The notes: generated by a model not told the origin, from the letters alone. A stretch of 64,000 nucleotides of DNA from Chloroflexota bacterium (GCA_030447245.1 JAUJPG010000011.1:67079-131078); one strand, 5' to 3'; counted from the first letter of the stretch, positions 2,657 through 51,988 are shown. A program made the numbers and translations.

Positions 2657-3757
2657 CTAGTCGCCGAAGCAGATCCCGAGGTCGCGCGCCGTCCTGACCC
2701 GCTCGCCATCGGGTGGGACCGTCTTGCGTACGCCGACCGCGTCGCTGAGCGGAACTGCGACGATCTCGGCGCCACGCAGGGCGACCATCGCGCCAAATTC
2801 TCCGCGTTCGACCAGGTGGGCCGCCGCGGCCCCCAGTCGCGTCGCCAGCACGCGGTCGAACGGACTCGGGCTCCCTCCGCGCTGGAGGTGCCCCAGGATG
2901 GCGCAACGGACCTCGTGGTGGATCCGTTGACCAAGCTCTTCGGCCAGCCAGTGGCCGACGCCACCCAGGCGGACGCTAATCGCCAGGGGATCCTGCCTCT
3001 GGAGTGTCATTGCCTGACTGCCGACCTGGTGCGCCCCCTCGGCGATGACGATGATGCTGAATTTGCCGCCCCGCCGATCGCGCTCCTGGACGTACTCAGC
3101 AATCCGCTCAAGTCGGAACGGGATCTCTGGCAGCAAGATGACCTCGACACCGCCGGCGATGCCGGCCTCGAGTGCGATCCAACCGCTGTGGCGCCCCATT
3201 ACCTCCACGATCATCACGCGGTGGTGGCTCTCAGCGGTCGACTGGAGCTTGTCGATGGCGTCGGTCGCGGTGGCGACTGCGGTGTCGAAGCCGAACGTAA
3301 TGTCTGTCGCGGATAGATCGTTGTCGATCGTCTTGGGTACACCCACGATCGGGACGCCGGTCTGGGACAGCTTTAGCCCGATGCTCTGCGACCCGTCTCC
3401 ACCGACCACGACGAGCGCGCCGACGCCCAGTTCGCGCAGCCGGGCCAGCGCGTCTCCGGAGCGGTCGACCGTTTGCACCGTGCCGTCCACCAGGGTCTTG
3501 TAGTTGAACGGGTCGCCGCGGTTGCTTGTCCCGAGGATCGTCCCGCCGCGCGGCAGGAGCCCGCGGACGTGCTCAACGCGGAGCTCACGCACGCCGTCCG
3601 GGCGGAACAGACCCTCGAACCCGTCCAGGATGCCGCAGACGCTCCAATCGAAGCGTGCGTCGGCGGTCTTGACGAACGCCCGCAGCACCGCGTTGAGCCC
3701 CGGACAGTCGCCGCCGCCGGTCAGGATGCCGACGCGCTTGAGGCCACCGTGTGGCAT
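2657..3757 (-). CDS. pfkA: 6-phosphofructokinase (ATP- or PPi-dependent PFK family)
   Basis: MPHGGLKRVGILTGGGDCPGLNAVLRAF...GGDGS...MGR motifs. RBS GGGGGAG lies upstream of the ATG at 3757. The ORF extends to 3796 but the conserved N-terminus begins at 3757. Confidence 0.9.
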   Translation of the reverse strand: MPHGGLKRVGILTGGGDCPGLNAVLRAFVKTADARFDWSVCGILDGFEGLFRPDGVRELRVEHVRGLLPRGGTILGTSNRGDPFNYKTLVDGTVQTVDRSGDALARLRELGVGALVVVGGDGSQSIGLKLSQTGVPIVGVPKTIDNDLSATDITFGFDTAVATATDAIDKLQSTAESHHRVMIVEVMGRHSGWIALEAGIAGGVEVILLPEIPFRLERIAEYVQERDRRGGKFSIIVIAEGAHQVGSQAMTLQRQDPLAISVRLGGVGHWLAEELGQRIHHEVRCAILGHLQRGGSPSPFDRVLATRLGAAAAHLVERGEFGAMVALRGAEIVAVPLSDAVGVRKTVPPDGERVRTARDLGICFGD

Positions 3758-31587: not shown

Positions 31588-31626
31588 CATCTGTTGGCGG
31601 CCGCTTCTGGAGCCGATGGTCAGATT
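31588..31626. repeat. attR-like direct repeat (overlaps the 3' 19 nt of tRNA-Thr)
   Basis: Matches 25440..25477. Confidence 0.75.
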
Positions 31627-31682
31627 CGAACTGACGGCCTGCCGCTTACGAGGAGGCTGCTCTACCCCTGAGCTACATCGGC
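31608..31682 (-). tRNA. tRNA-Thr (anticodon CGT)
   Basis: Reverse complement folds as a cloverleaf: acceptor GCCGATG/CATCGGC, D-arm GCTC-AGGGGTA-GAGC, anticodon loop CTCGTAA, T-arm GTCAG-TTCGAAT-CTGAC, CCA encoded. There is one U-C mismatch in the anticodon stem. Confidence 0.8.
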
Positions 31683-33203: not shown

Positions 33204-34484
33204 TCAGCCCAGACCCCGGATCTCTGCGAGGGCGGCATCGATCTCCTCCGGGCGGTTCACCAATCCGGGCGCAACCCGCGCGTAACTCCTCCCGTACGGG
33301 GTTGTCGTCGCAATGATCCGCCGTTCACGGAGACGCTGCACGACGGCGCGCGGCTCCAGGCCGCGCACGTCGAAGCAGACCATTCCGGCGGAGAGCTCCT
33401 CCGCCATCGGCGTGTGGAGGGTGACGTGGTCCATCGCAGCCACACCCTCCTTGAACTGGCGGTTCAAGCTGCGAATCCGCGTGGTGACGCGGGCCTTGCC
33501 GATGTGCTGATGAAGCTCGAAAGCCTGAGCGAGCGCCCAGCGGTGCTCGAACGAGTGAAAGCCGCCAGGCGTCATCGCGCCGCCAGGCGTGCCGTTGTCA
33601 GTGAACGACGGAATCGTCGGTGCCGCCGCCGACCAGGCCTCGGGTCGGGCCCAGATCAGACCCGTTCCTCGCGGGCCGAAGAGCCACTTATGGCAACCGG
33701 CGACGAAGAAGTCGCAGCCGAGGTCGGTAGGGGCCTGATCCTCAACCCCCAATCCGTGAACACCATCGATGCAGAGCAGCACGCGATCGGCGTCAGACCG
33801 CCCAGCGTTCGCGTCGCCTACGGCGTCGGCCATGCCGCGGACCGGCAGCTTCACGCCGGTGCTCGAGTGGACCCAGGTGGCGGCCACCACCCGCGTCCGC
33901 GGCCCGATCTCCCTCCTCAGGGCATCGACGATCTCCACCTCGGACGCGGTTGCGGGATCGCGGTAGAGCGGGATGGTGCGCAGTGCCGCACCGCTGCGCG
34001 CGGCCTTCGAGCGGAGCGCCTCGTGAGTGGCATAGAAATCATGCTGCGTGGTGAGGATCTCCTGGTCTGCACGCACATCAAGGCCGTTGTACAGGAGGCC
34101 CAGCCCCATCGTGGTGCTGTCAGTTAGGGCGATTGCCGCTGGGCGGCCGCCAAGGTAGGCGGCCGCCTGGCGAAGCACCTCGGCCTCCAGTCGGGGCCCA
34201 TGCTCCTGGAGGTAGTGGACCGGGTTCTCGTCCAGGCCACGCCGATGGGCCTCAATTGCGTTGCGGACCGGCGTCGGATGCGATGCCAGGTACAACCCGC
34301 CCAGGTGGATGTAGTCGCGGGTGAGGGCGAACTGGTCGCGGATGGCATCCCAGTTGTCCAGCCCGGCCTGGCGGCGATCGGGCGCGCCGGCCAGCCCGCT
34401 CTGCTGGGGCAGGCTTGGCAGGGCGCCGGCCGTGACCGCCAGGGCCGAGCGCGCCAGGAACTCGCGGCGGCTCGACCCGCTCAC
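33204..34484 (-). CDS. Class-V aminotransferase-fold PLP enzyme (cysteine desulfurase / isopenicillin-N epimerase-like) with twin-arginine signal peptide
   Basis: The GTG start overlaps the stop of the upstream gene (GTGA). MSGSSRREFLARSALAVTAGAL is a Tat motif; HKWLFGPRGTG is the PLP-lysine region. Confidence 0.8.
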   Translation of the reverse strand: MSGSSRREFLARSALAVTAGALPSLPQQSGLAGAPDRRQAGLDNWDAIRDQFALTRDYIHLGGLYLASHPTPVRNAIEAHRRGLDENPVHYLQEHGPRLEAEVLRQAAAYLGGRPAAIALTDSTTMGLGLLYNGLDVRADQEILTTQHDFYATHEALRSKAARSGAALRTIPLYRDPATASEVEIVDALRREIGPRTRVVAATWVHSSTGVKLPVRGMADAVGDANAGRSDADRVLLCIDGVHGLGVEDQAPTDLGCDFFVAGCHKWLFGPRGTGLIWARPEAWSAAAPTIPSFTDNGTPGGAMTPGGFHSFEHRWALAQAFELHQHIGKARVTTRIRSLNRQFKEGVAAMDHVTLHTPMAEELSAGMVCFDVRGLEPRAVVQRLRERRIIATTTPYGRSYARVAPGLVNRPEEIDAALAEIRGLG

Positions 34485-34855
34485 GTTGAGAGTCCGCTCG
34501 GGCCGGCGGTCGCCTCGTCGCGGAATAGGAAGCGCCCGAAGAATGGCCGGTTGTTAGCCACGAGGCGGTAGCCGATCTCGACGGCCCAGATCAGCGGCGG
34601 AGTCGAGAGGACGGCCGTGGTGCGTCGCCAGCCGGCCTGCTCGAGCGCGCAGAGCGCTGCTCGGCCGGCGCGGAGGACACGGCCTTCGGGAGTGATCACG
34701 TGCACCGCCCGCGCGCATGCTCGTCTGAGACGCGGCGTCATCGGCGGCGACGGCGCATCTTGATAGGGTACGAACCTCAGCCGCCCAGCCCGATCTTGTC
34801 GCCTGACCCAGACGACGCAGCGTCGTCAAAACGCTCACGCACCGTCCCAGAACAC
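34481..34855 (-). CDS. DUF393/DCC-family thiol-disulfide oxidoreductase with both CxxC cysteines encoded by in-frame TGA (candidate UxxU selenoprotein)
   Basis: Minus-strand frame reads (GTG)FWDGA-TGA-AF-TGA-RRCVVWVRRQDRAGRLRFVPYQDAPSPPMTPRLRR...LIWAVEIGYRLVANNRPFFG. It is collinear with the DUF393 consensus (lfYDGeCplCnrfvrfl.rrDr.g.lrF.plQs...), and the two TGAs (34835..34837 and 34826..34828 on the forward strand) fall exactly at the CxxC positions. The annotated-style ORF 34481..34741 is only the C-terminal 86 aa. Confidence 0.55.
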
Positions 34856-35024
34856 CCAGTAGCGCGGTTCGCCACGCCCGGCCGTCGATCAACGCTGTCG
34901 CTCCTCGGTCGCGGCGCGTGCTGCCGCGGACAGATGGTATCGCATCCTTCTCACACGTGTTTGTGGCTGATGGGAGTCACTATCCCGGCCAGGCCATGCC
35001 GGCCGGCCCGGGTTGGCCGGGCGA

Positions 35025-35759
35025 TCAGGGATGCGCTGGGCGATCAGTTGGAGCCGGGCGCGACGCCCGAGCGAACCGATAGCCCAGCCCACGTTCGGTG
35101 AGGATGAAGCGCGGCCGATCCGGGTCATCCTCGAGCTTGCTCCGCAGGCGACTGACGTACACCTTCAGGTAGTCGGACTGTTCGCGATATTCCTCCCCCC
35201 ACACTCGGGCCAGCAGTGCCTCGCGCGGCAGGACGTGACCCGCGTTCCGCACAAGGTGGTAGAGCACCCGGTACTCCAGCGTGGTCAATGGAACCGGAGC
35301 CCCGGACTTGGTGACCTCGTGACTGTCGAAGTTGATCGTGAGGTTGCCCAAGGTGAATGAGGGCGTAGCGCGGATCGGCGGTGCGAGCTCTGAGCGTCGC
35401 AGGATGGCCTTGATCCTGGCGAGCAACTCGAGCGGACTGAAAGGCTTGGTGACGTAGTCGTCGGCGCCAATCTCCAGACCGCGTACCTTGTCAAGCTCCT
35501 CGCCTCGCGCGGTGAGCATCAACACCGGGGTGTCAGAGACTGCGCGGATCCGGCGCAGCACTTCAAAGCCGTCCAGCCTCGGCAATCCCACGTCGAGCAG
35601 AACGACATCGGGCTGCTGCTCAAAAAAGACCTCTAGGCCCTGCTCCCCGTCGGTCGCGGTGATCACCTCGGCGGCCTGCCACTGGAGCTGCATGCCGAGG
35701 CCAAGGGCTTCGAGCAGGTCGTGGTCGTCGTCGACGATCAGGATCTTCATCGGCCACGA
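35025..35759 (-). CDS. OmpR/PhoB-family response regulator
   Basis: MKILIVDDDHDLLEAL...LDVGLPRLDGFEVLRRIR...winged-helix C-terminus (VYVSRLRSKLEDDP...GYRF). Confidence 0.85.
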   Translation of the reverse strand, partial: SWPMKILIVDDDHDLLEALGLGMQLQWQAAEVITATDGEQGLEVFFEQQPDVVLLDVGLPRLDGFEVLRRIRAVSDTPVLMLTARGEELDKVRGLEIGADDYVTKPFSPLELLARIKAILRRSELAPPIRATPSFTLGNLTINFDSHEVTKSGAPVPLTTLEYRVLYHLVRNAGHVLPREALLARVWGEEYREQSDYLKVYVSRLRSKLEDDPDRPRFILTERGLGYRFARASRPAPTDRPAHP

Positions 35760-37516
35760 GCGTCTGGGTCGCTCCCGGCCGCGCGCGACTGCCCCGAGGC
35801 CTCGGGAAGAACCACGAAGAACGTGGCGCCGCGCCCGGTCCGACTGTCCAGCCCGACGCGGCCGCCGTGCAGCTCGGCAAGCGCGTGGGCGATCGGCAGT
35901 CCCAGGCCGGTGCCTGTCGTCCGGCGCGTCGGCTCGTTGTCGAGCCGATAGAATCGCTCGAAGATCGCCCGCTGCTCGGAGGGCGGGATGCCCGGCCCGT
36001 CGTCGTGCACGGACAGGCGGACTGAACCCGCGGGCGCCGGTCCGACGCGGAGGAGGATGGTACTTCCGGAGGGTCCGTATCTGACGGCGTTGGTGAGCAG
36101 ATTGAGCACGATCTGCTCGAGCCGTCGACGATCGCCGTCGACGGTGCACGGCCGGGAGGAGCTGCTCAGCCGGATAGTCTGGCCACGCTCGTCGGCCAAC
36201 GGGCGGACCGTTGCGACCGCGTCCTCGGCAATGTGGCGCAGGTCCAGCAGGTCGCGATGTAGCTCCAGCCGACCGCCTTCAAGGCGGACCAGGTCCAGCA
36301 GGTCGGTCACAAGGGCCGTCAGCCGATCGCTCGAGCGATCCACATTTCGGAGTAGCCGGCGGTGGGTCTCCGAAACGTCGACCGGTGCCGTCGACAGGAG
36401 GACCTCGGCCGAGGCCTTGATCGACGCCAACGGAGTGCGCAGCTCGTGGGAGACGAGCGACAGGAATTGCGACTTGAGCCGCTCCAGCTCCTTGAGCTGC
36501 TCGCGCTCGCTCACGGCCTCCTCGTAGAGCATCGCATTCTCGAGCGCCACCGCCGCCTGGGCGGCGAACACGCCGAGCAGGCGGGCATCCTGGCGGGTGA
36601 ACAGGCCCTGGGTCTTGTTCGCCACGCGGAGCACGCCGAGTACGCGGGTTGCGCGGAGTGGGACCATCAGCAAGGCTCGTTCGCCGAGCACACGCGCGGT
36701 CTCGCTTCCATCGCGTCGATCCGCCGGCGCGTCGTTGGTGATGTACGGGTGCGCGGTTTCGAAGACCTGGACGCACACGCCGCCCTGGGCGAGTGGAAAG
36801 CTGAGTCGCCGTACCTGGTTCGGACGGTAACCGTGCGGAGACGGGCGTGCGACGAGTGACCCCGCCTCGAGCGTCAGCACGGCCGCGCGGTCAGCCCCAA
36901 GCAAGTGGGCTGCCTGACGGGCGACCTGGGCGCCCACCGCGTCCAGCTCGGCCAGCGCGGCAATCGCTTCGCTGGCCTCGGCGAGGCGCGCCACGTCAGC
37001 CAGTCGATCCTGCAGGGCGTCAAACAGCCGGGCGTTGTCGACCGCCATGGCGATAGACCCCGCGAAGGCCCTCATCAATGCATCCGCGGTCTGCGGAAAT
37101 GGGCGCGCCCGGGCCCGCAGGGCGGTCAGGGTGCCCAACCTCCGGCCACGCAGGAGGAGCGGGATGGTCAGTCGGGTGGACAGTGCGTCGGCCGCCTGGC
37201 CAGCCCAGGGGCGGCGAACGTGCAGCACCTCGACTCCGCCCGGGCCACCCAGGCGGATTGTCGCGGCGTCGGCCCTGACCGCATTGGCAACTAGCTCGGC
37301 GGAGCGCCGCAGCACACCGTCAAGGTCGTCAGCCGCGGCGATGATCCGTGGCATCCGGCCGAGGTGCCGGGCGGCCGCTGTGCCCAAACTGGCTACAGCC
37401 GGCGGTGCGTCGGCTTGCTCGGCTTCGCGGGCAATCACCGCGTCTCGCTCGATCATCTCTCGGCCCCCGCTTGCGGTCCCTCGTCCGGTATACCCCGCGT
37501 GAAGGCCGGCCGCCAC
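35747..37516 (-). CDS. GAF-domain sensor histidine kinase
   Basis: GAF-like N-terminal regions, HisKA (LSLVSHELRTPL) and HATPase_c (GTGLGLPIAHALAELHGG). It overlaps the RR start. Start codon uncertain (alternative at MIERD). Confidence 0.8.
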   Translation of the reverse strand: MAAGLHAGYTGRGTASGGREMIERDAVIAREAEQADAPPAVASLGTAAARHLGRMPRIIAAADDLDGVLRRSAELVANAVRADAATIRLGGPGGVEVLHVRRPWAGQAADALSTRLTIPLLLRGRRLGTLTALRARARPFPQTADALMRAFAGSIAMAVDNARLFDALQDRLADVARLAEASEAIAALAELDAVGAQVARQAAHLLGADRAAVLTLEAGSLVARPSPHGYRPNQVRRLSFPLAQGGVCVQVFETAHPYITNDAPADRRDGSETARVLGERALLMVPLRATRVLGVLRVANKTQGLFTRQDARLLGVFAAQAAVALENAMLYEEAVSEREQLKELERLKSQFLSLVSHELRTPLASIKASAEVLLSTAPVDVSETHRRLLRNVDRSSDRLTALVTDLLDLVRLEGGRLELHRDLLDLRHIAEDAVATVRPLADERGQTIRLSSSSRPCTVDGDRRRLEQIVLNLLTNAVRYGPSGSTILLRVGPAPAGSVRLSVHDDGPGIPPSEQRAIFERFYRLDNEPTRRTTGTGLGLPIAHALAELHGGRVGLDSRTGRGATFFVVLPEASGQSRAAGSDPDARGR

Positions 37517-47413: not shown

Positions 47414-47499
47414 TGGCGGAGGGGGAGGGATTCGAACCCCCGGGGCTTGCGCCCAGCCGTTTTCAAGACGGCCACGTTAGACCACTCCGACACCCCTCC
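47414..47499 (-). tRNA. tRNA-Ser (anticodon TGA, reads UCA), class II with long variable arm
   Basis: GGAGGGGTGTCGGAGTGGTCTAACGTGGCCGTCTTGAAAACGGCTGGGCGCAAGCCCCGGGGGTTCGAATCCCTCCCCCTCCGCCA; anticodon loop CTTGAAA. Confidence 0.85.
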
Positions 47500-51857: not shown

Positions 51858-51917
51858 GCGCTAGGGGCGCGTCCGATGGGGCTGCATCTCTGGCGTTCGC
51901 GGTCGGCGCGAGCGCGG

Positions 51918-51988
51918 CTGGCGAGCCAGGATTCGAACCTGGGATAAGGGTTCCAAAGACCCCTGTGATACCACTTCACCACTCGCCA
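51918..51988 (-). tRNA. tRNA-Gln (anticodon TTG)
   Basis: TGGCGAGTGGTGAAGTGGTATCACAGGGGTCTTTGGAACCCTTATCCCAGGTTCGAATCCTGGCTCGCCAG; U1-A72 pair typical of tRNA-Gln; CCA not encoded. Confidence 0.8.

Follow-up and report, generated by a model that had tools for sequence, protein, structure and literature searches.

A conserved hairpin as the probable single SECIS of two closely spaced UGA codons in DCC-family UxxU genes

The consensus bacterial selenocysteine (Sec, U) insertion sequence (bSECIS) is a stem-loop within the coding sequence just 3' of the UGA codon, with a small loop that starts with G and a stem of 6-8 base pairs (bp), and the decoding of closely spaced Sec codons in bacteria is at issue because a bacterial SECIS needs a defined distance from its UGA. 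To our knowledge, few UxxU cases had been noted before 2026, and these in passing only. In the UxxU Group 4 [NiFeSe] hydrogenases (PMC13582414, 2026), two UGAs replace both cysteines of a CxxC motif, the CxxU, UxxC and UxxU forms share one conserved downstream SECIS, and the authors propose that this single SECIS is used for both codons. Similarly, a Trx-like or metal-binding CxxC has become UxxU in a Prx-like thiol:disulfide oxidoreductase (UxxC/UxxU), a putative mercuric reductase and the FmdB family (PMC13188914, PMC9312934). For UxxU selenoproteins, including SelL, a diselenide/diselenol redox centre is predicted, and fish SelL contains a diselenide bond (Shchedrina et al. 2007, as cited in PMC2398784). 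Here, a locus of this type is described in a 64,000-nucleotide (nt) stretch of DNA from a Chloroflexota bacterium (GCA_030447245.1 JAUJPG010000011.1:67079-131078; hereafter the window), where the gene of a DCC1-like thiol-disulfide oxidoreductase contains two in-frame UGA codons, UGA#1 and UGA#2, followed by two overlapping inverted repeats, hairpin 1 and hairpin 2. An original prediction, made from the sequence alone, had regarded both hairpins as SECIS-like elements; the analysis reported here indicates that one conserved SECIS, hairpin 2, very probably serves both UGAs of a UxxU selenoprotein of the DCC family.

The hydrogenases belong to an unrelated family and their motif provides metal ligands, whereas that of DCC is a redox dithiol. 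The predicted redox centre of the UxxU selenoproteins is shared by DCC, but the fold family differs (PF04134), and SelL relies on a eukaryotic SECIS in the 3' untranslated region, where closely spaced UGAs pose no geometric problem. Taking the U of UGA#1 as position 1 (window coordinate = 34838 - position, minus strand), the minus-strand mRNA reads UGG GAC GGU GCG UGA GCG UUU UGA CGA CGC UGC GUC GUC UGG GUC AGG CGA CAA, and the frame through both TGAs translates as V-F-W-D-G-A-*-A-F-*-R-R-C-V-V-W-V-R-R-Q-D-R-A-G-R-L (Table 1; * marks a TGA). Full-length Cys homologues read WDGxCGFCRR, with the D and both C of DxxCxxC invariant (alignment A3), so that both TGAs fall exactly on the invariant cysteines C26 and C29. 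The translation matches Pfam PF04134 (gathering cutoff 27.8 bits) with X at both TGAs (E=2e-10, 42.4 bits) and with Cys substituted at both (E=1.3e-16, 62.3 bits).

Table 1. Coordinates of the DCC gene, its UGA codons and hairpins, and neighbouring features in the window (ORF, open reading frame; MFE, minimum free energy).
Feature	Window coordinates	Strand	Positions	Remarks
DCC1-like (PF04134/DUF393) thiol-disulfide oxidoreductase gene	34481..34855	-		124 codons; DxxUxxU motif
Likely start codon of the DCC gene, GTG	34855..34853	-		
Stop codon of the DCC gene	34483..34481	-		
Annotated ORF in the source genome, P0002	34481..34741	-		86 aa from Met39; 100 % identical, 69 % of query covered
UGA#1	34837..34835	-	1-3	First Cys of CxxC motif; predicted Sec
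UGA#2	34828..34826	-	10-12	Second Cys of CxxC motif; predicted Sec; 9 nt past UGA#1
Hairpin 1	34827..34811	-	11-27	GACGACG-CUG-CGUCGUC; judged incidental, unconserved
Hairpin 2	34816..34798	-	22-40	GUCGUCUG-GGU-CAGGCGAC; conserved, very probable SECIS element
Hairpin 2, 5' arm	34816..34809	-		
Hairpin 2, loop	34808..34806	-		GGU
Hairpin 2, 3' arm	34805..34798	-		
Hairpin 2, conserved 6-bp core	34814..34800	-		
Small MFE hairpin	34819..34835	-		AGCGUU-UUGAC-GACGCU; UGA#2 in loop; predicted for the window sequence
PvdN-like class-V aminotransferase gene	33204..34484	-		Pfam Aminotran_5; start overlaps DCC stop by 4 nt
tRNA-Thr (CGU)	31608-31682	-		Ordinary tRNA gene
tRNA-Ser (UGA)	47414-47499	-		Ordinary tRNA gene
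tRNA-Gln (UUG)	51916-51988	-		Ordinary tRNA gene

Relatives were collected by two scans, one of metagenomes with a coding-frame pattern that left the hairpin arms unconstrained, whose figures are those among the matches listed, and one of a single genome per GTDB species with downstream peptide motifs, blind to both the TGAs and the hairpin (the unbiased set). Loci from both scans were kept after confirmation with a hidden Markov model (HMM), and they comprise at least 141 UxxU, at least 46 CxxC, at least four UxxC and at least one CxxU forms; the unique sequences among the matches listed are 115 for UxxU and 46 for CxxC. The arrangement TGA-NNN-NNN-TGA is kept in the at least 141 homologous UxxU loci, from more than 10 phyla, with flanks that vary synonymously, and the 46 CxxC forms have TGC or TGT at the positions of UGA#1 and UGA#2. 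Carriers are found in Chloroflexota, Armatimonadota, Myxococcota, Binatia, Methylomirabilota, Actinomycetota, Planctomycetota, Thermoanaerobaculia and others. Sec forms account for 32 of the 78 HMM-confirmed relatives in the species-level scan, and all but one of the 29 unique Sec forms in the unbiased set (28/29) preserve W-D-G, in frame, ahead of the first TGA. The two kinds of form, Sec and Cys, are intermingled on a rough neighbour-joining tree, with no fewer than 19 changes of state. The TGAs align with Cys, conservation extends to both sides of them and orthologues occur in several organisms, which are the features by which the Sec/Cys-pair criterion recognizes a selenoprotein gene. One metagenomic contig (L074) contains two UxxU DCC loci (1003-1059 and 3460-3516), 2.4 kb apart, the first of which scores 36 bits only, has an extra in-frame stop and looks like a decaying duplicate.

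Hairpin 2 is present where the UGAs are present and absent where they are not. At least 6 contiguous bp are formed in 107 of the 115 unique UxxU sequences, with 6-8 bp in each of these, and in none of the 46 CxxC sequences, whose maximum is 4; in the unbiased set the proportions are 25/29 for Sec forms and 0/46 for CxxC forms (Fisher p=4.5e-16). Covariation was assessed in an ungapped alignment of 113 sequences (A2), across which the register is fixed, against 500 shuffles and slid controls. The cells of hairpin 2 are paired in 91.9 % of cases, compared with 15-43 % in the slid controls, and compensatory cells number 72 against 21.8±5.2 in the shuffles, none of which (0/500) reached as high a value. 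Thus, pair 27-35 is C-G in 90 sequences and U-A in 24, and pair 23-39 is C-G in 54, U-A in 35 and U-G in 7. The loop is GGU in 92 sequences, GUU in 16, GGC in 4, GAC in 2 and GUG in 1, its first base being G in all 115. RNAalifold recovered the helix of hairpin 2, and this helix alone, in alignments of 72 and 150 nt, and neither a second downstream SECIS nor an extended lower stem was found in the 150-nt RNAalifold alignment, among the outward pairs 9-12 or by sliding MFE.

The folding energies and the encoded protein bear the same mark. In the free mRNA of the window, hairpin 2 has a probability of about 0.99, and the family mean MFE of positions 20-42 is -12.2 kcal/mol in Sec forms and -6.5 kcal/mol in Cys forms; no other segment is more structured in the former than in the latter. 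Its flanks, with the UGA pair among them, have the opposite bias, being less structured in Sec forms at positions -11 to +10 (approximately 34848-34828) and +31 to +60 (34807-34778), with mean 30-nt MFE values of -5.5 versus -10.2 kcal/mol on the 5' side and -4.4 versus -7.5 kcal/mol on the 3' side for Sec and Cys forms, respectively. These unstructured flanks may reflect selection for an isolated and accessible SECIS. Codons 8-12 past UGA#1 encode a near-fixed A-W-V-(R/K)-R in Sec forms, whereas Cys forms are variable at these sites (E/A/Q, A/V/F, E/L/R). Codon 11 is AGG in 83 of the 115 Sec forms, while AGG lies outside the six commonest codons in Cys forms (mostly GAG, CTG and CGC). In one compensatory pair, GCC->GCU with AGG->AAG, a synonymous change is coupled to the replacement of Arg by Lys. 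From these patterns, the SECIS seems to leave an imprint on the protein that it helps to encode.

The published bSECIS criteria (PMC13188914, which summarises the bSECISearch consensus model of Zhang & Gladyshev 2005) include a loop of 3-9 nt, a stem of 4-16 bp, a G in the first two loop positions, usually as G[G/U]N, a distance from UGA to loop of 16-37 nt and an MFE of -7.5 kcal/mol or lower. When these were applied by hand, hairpin 2 fell within every limit, with its GGU loop, a stem of 8 bp including one U-G pair, distances of 26 and 17 nt for UGA#1 and UGA#2, respectively, and an MFE of -11.3 kcal/mol on its own. Hairpin 1 (7 bp, -9.8 kcal/mol) agrees with the limits on loop, stem and MFE, but the G of its CUG loop is in third place and its distances of 14 and 5 nt are too short. 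Hairpin 2 thus shares with the bSECIS consensus the location, loop and stem, and differs from it in fitting the spacing for two UGAs at once, in having neither a lower stem nor an internal loop and in its unusually unstructured surroundings. Escherichia coli fdhF (RF01988, SECIS_2), measured alike, has its upper stem 11 nt and its GGUC loop 18 nt away from the UGA, and from UGA#2 the geometry is near-identical, with 11 nt to the conserved 6-bp core of hairpin 2 and GGU in the loop. However, there is no similarity to fdhF in sequence or structure model, hairpin 2 lacks the bulged U and the extended lower helix that encloses the UGA, and its loop is a triloop and not a tetraloop. As for UGA#1, approximately 13 nt is estimated to be enough from the A site to the loop, and the hinge between domains WHD2 and WHD3 of SelB absorbs differences in length (Itoh et al., PMC4605307), so that a tether of 26 nt appears to be geometrically permissible.

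The forms with a single UGA bear directly on whether one element can serve two codons. Three UxxC forms (L134, L199, L205) and the CxxU form (L144) carry hairpin 2 in the same register, and hence one element evidently serves either codon; this natural series is the strongest evidence for a single SECIS. A further UxxC form (L172) carries a different stem-loop, shifted in position, with 5 bp and a GGGUGG loop of 6 nt, which is possibly a variant SECIS. In the mechanism that would follow, the SelB-GTP-Sec-tRNASec complex would bind hairpin 2 at its apical part. While UGA#1 occupies the A site, the longer of the two distances would separate it from the loop, and the single-stranded, poorly structured linker, together with the WHD2-WHD3 hinge of SelB, would take up the slack. 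After two further codons, UGA#2 would occupy the A site, with the loop at about the fdhF distance, and hairpin 2, once it had taken up a new or recharged SelB complex, would also direct the second insertion, presumably again of Sec.

Several observations weigh against a single SECIS serving both codons of the window gene. In E. coli experiments, Sec insertion reportedly proved sensitive to the spacing between UGA and SECIS, in which case a tolerance of 9 nt cannot be taken for granted. Unlike its relatives, the window gene can start only at a GTG, six codons before UGA#1; this GTG, the sole start codon in frame after the upstream stop (TGA, 34891..34889) and before UGA#1, would yield M-F-W-D-G-A-U and place Sec at codons 7 and 10, whereas in two relatives, L003 and L004, an ATG precedes the W by 8 codons, and a conserved Y-W-V lies upstream of the window's GTG. 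To judge from this comparison, the N-terminus of the window copy may be shortened, or its start codon may be non-canonical. Moreover, none of the Rfam models SECIS_2-SECIS_5 (RF01988-RF01991) scored at the gathering threshold, and none matched at E<=10 in 34650-34950, so that the comparison with known covariance models proposed in the original prediction returned nothing. Since the positive control, E. coli fdhF, scores 87.1 bits on SECIS_2, these models are fdh-type and family-specific, and their null result does not refute a SECIS. Neither tRNA-Sec nor SelA, SelB or SelD was found with ARAGORN and with tblastn searches using E. coli SelA, SelB and SelD in the 64-kb window or in the related loci (approximately 1.2 Mb in all, which covers little of each genome); Chloroflexota do include Sec users (PMC13326102, PMC13582414). 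In addition, a test that hid the 5' side of the mRNA stepwise to mimic the ribosome gave hairpin 1, with positions 1 to 7-10 occluded, a probability of 0.57-0.61 in the window sequence, against 0.37-0.41 for hairpin 2. This occlusion approximates a ribosome whose A site holds UGA#1.

The last observation speaks for the model of the original prediction, in which hairpin 1 would be the SECIS of UGA#1 and hairpin 2 that of UGA#2, and alternate folding through the shared segment GUCGUC would allow sequential SelB-dependent decoding. What that prediction said of the sequence is correct throughout, namely the mRNA, both inverted repeats, the spacings (hairpin 1 begins at the G of UGA#2, 7 nt past UGA#1, and hairpin 2 begins 9 nt past UGA#2) and the shared GUCGUC. 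Both stems are thus present and exclude one another, chance would yield a perfect 7-bp hairpin only about 0.03 times per 30-nt stretch, and the hairpin 1 loop, at its distance from UGA#1, lies just over the span estimate of PMC4605307. Nevertheless, only hairpin 2 exceeds chance. All seven pairs of hairpin 1, described in the original prediction as a perfect 8+8 inverted repeat, are in register in 1 of 115 sequences, that of the window itself; its cells are paired in 61.6 % of cases across the family and in 62.3 % in shuffles (473/500 as high), and covariation is not in excess. The nearest relatives (87-89 % identity) encode RRS[VI]A instead of RRCVV and lack the palindrome, and perfect hairpins of at least 7 bp occur once per approximately 970 nt in the GC-rich window. 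The 5' arm of hairpin 1 takes in the G and A of UGA#2, and in the free mRNA of the window its probability is about 0, with -9.8 kcal/mol against -17.8 kcal/mol for hairpin 2 together with the small hairpin of Table 1. The competition that had been predicted is real only in the narrow occlusion state described above and is an outlier property of the window within the family: once position 11 is also hidden, hairpin 2 returns to a probability of 0.98 in the window sequence, and family-wide it dominates in every occlusion state (median 0.98-0.99), the window lying in the lowest 6-14 %. Furthermore, the UxxC relatives, which need to decode UGA#1 only, carry hairpin 2 alone, which is at odds both with a separate hairpin for each UGA and with two exclusive hairpins for sequential decoding. 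As a mechanism for the family, the two-hairpin model is largely refuted, and for the window we consider it very unlikely. Hairpin 1 is judged incidental, a palindrome that arises from the lineage-private RRCVV codons (CGA CGC UGC GUC GUC) and has no conserved role; if anything, it would mildly hinder the decoding of UGA#1 and not enable it. Of the two SECIS-like elements originally proposed, hairpin 2 is thus upheld and hairpin 1 is not. The folding check that had been proposed likewise gave one of the two, since the unconstrained MFE structure of the 43-nt segment (z=-2.06) consists of hairpin 2 and the small hairpin. With the context extended to 71 nt, folding does not surpass that of shuffles (z=+0.25), and given these two values the thermodynamics of a single sequence settles nothing. 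The small hairpin was also considered as a conserved element and was rejected, as its pairing (39.5 %) equals that of shuffles and its six pairs occur in 2 of 115 sequences.

Two other readings concern the product of the UGAs. The TGAs could be real stops of a pseudogene or split gene, with the hairpins as by-products of GC-rich coding or of A-W-V-R-R conservation. The absence of Sec machinery from the window, the lack in the window copy of the relatives' upstream ATG or TTG start and the unremarkable 71-nt fold agree with this, as does the source annotation, which calls the C-terminal part alone (P0002) and omits the active site. However, six close relatives (P0060, P0095, P0108, P0012, P0018, P0041) are truncated likewise by gene callers, and all six carry in-frame TGA-NNN-NNN-TGA with surrounding synonymous changes. 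The calling of the C-terminal ORF alone is the usual fate of selenoprotein genes, and the pattern points to a systematic misannotation of DCC UxxU genes as truncated ORFs without the active site. Moreover, the TGAs stand on both catalytic Cys codons throughout the UxxU loci, with the frame and W-D-G preserved; TGA is an ordinary stop in the window, so that the code is not reassigned; Cys forms keep the W codon and yet have no hairpin; and the compensatory C-G<->U-A changes and the use of AGG or AAG at codon 11, peculiar to Sec forms, are likewise hard to reconcile with by-products. Real stops are therefore extremely improbable. It is also conceivable, although unlikely, that hairpin 2 acts as the SECIS in a SelB-dependent process, while one or both UGAs are read as Cys by a tRNASec-like tRNACys (tRNA-ReC/selC*), which inserts Cys at SECIS-dependent UGAs, giving CxxC, UxxC or CxxU and not UxxU. 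In the UxxU hydrogenases, Cys may be inserted at one UGA or at both, and tRNA-ReC occurs in approximately 56 % of the genomes concerned, including 5/5 Armatimonadota (PMC13582414); given this enrichment, one or both DCC codons may be Cys. Armatimonadota and Chloroflexota are among the phyla whose genomes carry DCC UxxU genes, and a Cys-reading intermediate would ease the repeated Sec/Cys switches seen on the rough tree. On the other hand, no tRNA-ReC-like gene was found in the window or related loci, which cover a small part of each genome. Such reading would leave the role of hairpin 2 unchanged, and the inserted residue cannot be deduced from sequence. Thus, the interpretation of hairpin 2 as the one SECIS of both UGAs is retained.

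Regarding the protein, no relatives of the DCC product were found in the PDB by sequence, and no NCBIfam model matches it. In an AlphaFold (AF2) model of a Cys homologue that is 68 % identical (P0003; predicted local distance difference test 83), a strand at E18-22 is followed by a helix at H27-39, and the CxxC lies at this beta1/alpha1 junction. Foldseek matches of this model are weak and almost all of Trx fold, the best being Mrx1 (prob 0.93, E=0.03). A third cysteine, Cys47 (34697-34699, minus strand), part of an ACARAVHV motif, does not vary within the family; it could be the residue that resolves the UxxU centre or partners with it. An additional, lineage-specific Cys (codon 13; 34799-34801, minus strand) is encoded by the window gene three residues past the second Sec (RRC), and its codon helps to create the palindrome of hairpin 1.

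The aminotransferase gene that overlaps the DCC stop matches NCBIfam PvdN (E=1e-129, below the model cutoff), and its similarity to the Sec lyase SclA is faint. The two genes are linked only in the closest relatives (L003, L004, L007) and not family-wide. A functional linkage of the DCC gene to a possible Sec lyase was rejected because the aminotransferase is PvdN-like and the linkage is limited to the closest relatives. Directly upstream, on the same strand, are genes for a response regulator of the OmpR/MtrA type and a histidine kinase with a GAF domain (35025-37516, minus strand); homologous regulator/kinase pairs are found 3.6-5 kb from the UxxU gene in L018 and L099, and in L004 a response regulator alone is present at the cut edge of the locus. 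A scan for in-frame TGAs revealed no other selenoprotein gene in the window. The anticodon UGA of the tRNA-Ser in Table 1 reads UCA, and this tRNA is not tRNA-Sec.

No selenoprotein described under DCC, DUF393, PF04134, COG3011 or YuxK was found in the 2022 and 2026 catalogues, the GOS study, the deep-Sep and BSepDB papers or the wider searchable literature, and the DCC UxxU family therefore appears to be uncatalogued as a selenoprotein. Since a single SECIS for two UGAs was proposed for hydrogenases in 2026, the idea itself is not new; hairpin 2 is a further bSECIS, and the DCC family provides the single-SECIS idea with a much larger, controlled data set, as it exceeds the hydrogenase sample and adds the Cys-form control and covariation statistics. 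Because the hairpin is short, easily mutated and at a fixed register, the hypothesis of one SECIS for two UGAs is directly testable. The wider proposition, that there is a widespread DCC UxxU selenoprotein family with a diselenide-capable site whose UxxU, UxxC and CxxU series shows a single SECIS directing the SelB-dependent decoding of UGAs 9 nt apart, is evenly balanced in our estimation. The family is a large natural series for the question of how closely spaced Sec codons are decoded in bacteria, with its 115 unique UxxU sequences, its UxxC, CxxU and CxxC forms and its many Sec/Cys switches, and it would represent an apparently uncatalogued, phylogenetically broad family of selenoproteins with a potential diselenide redox centre.

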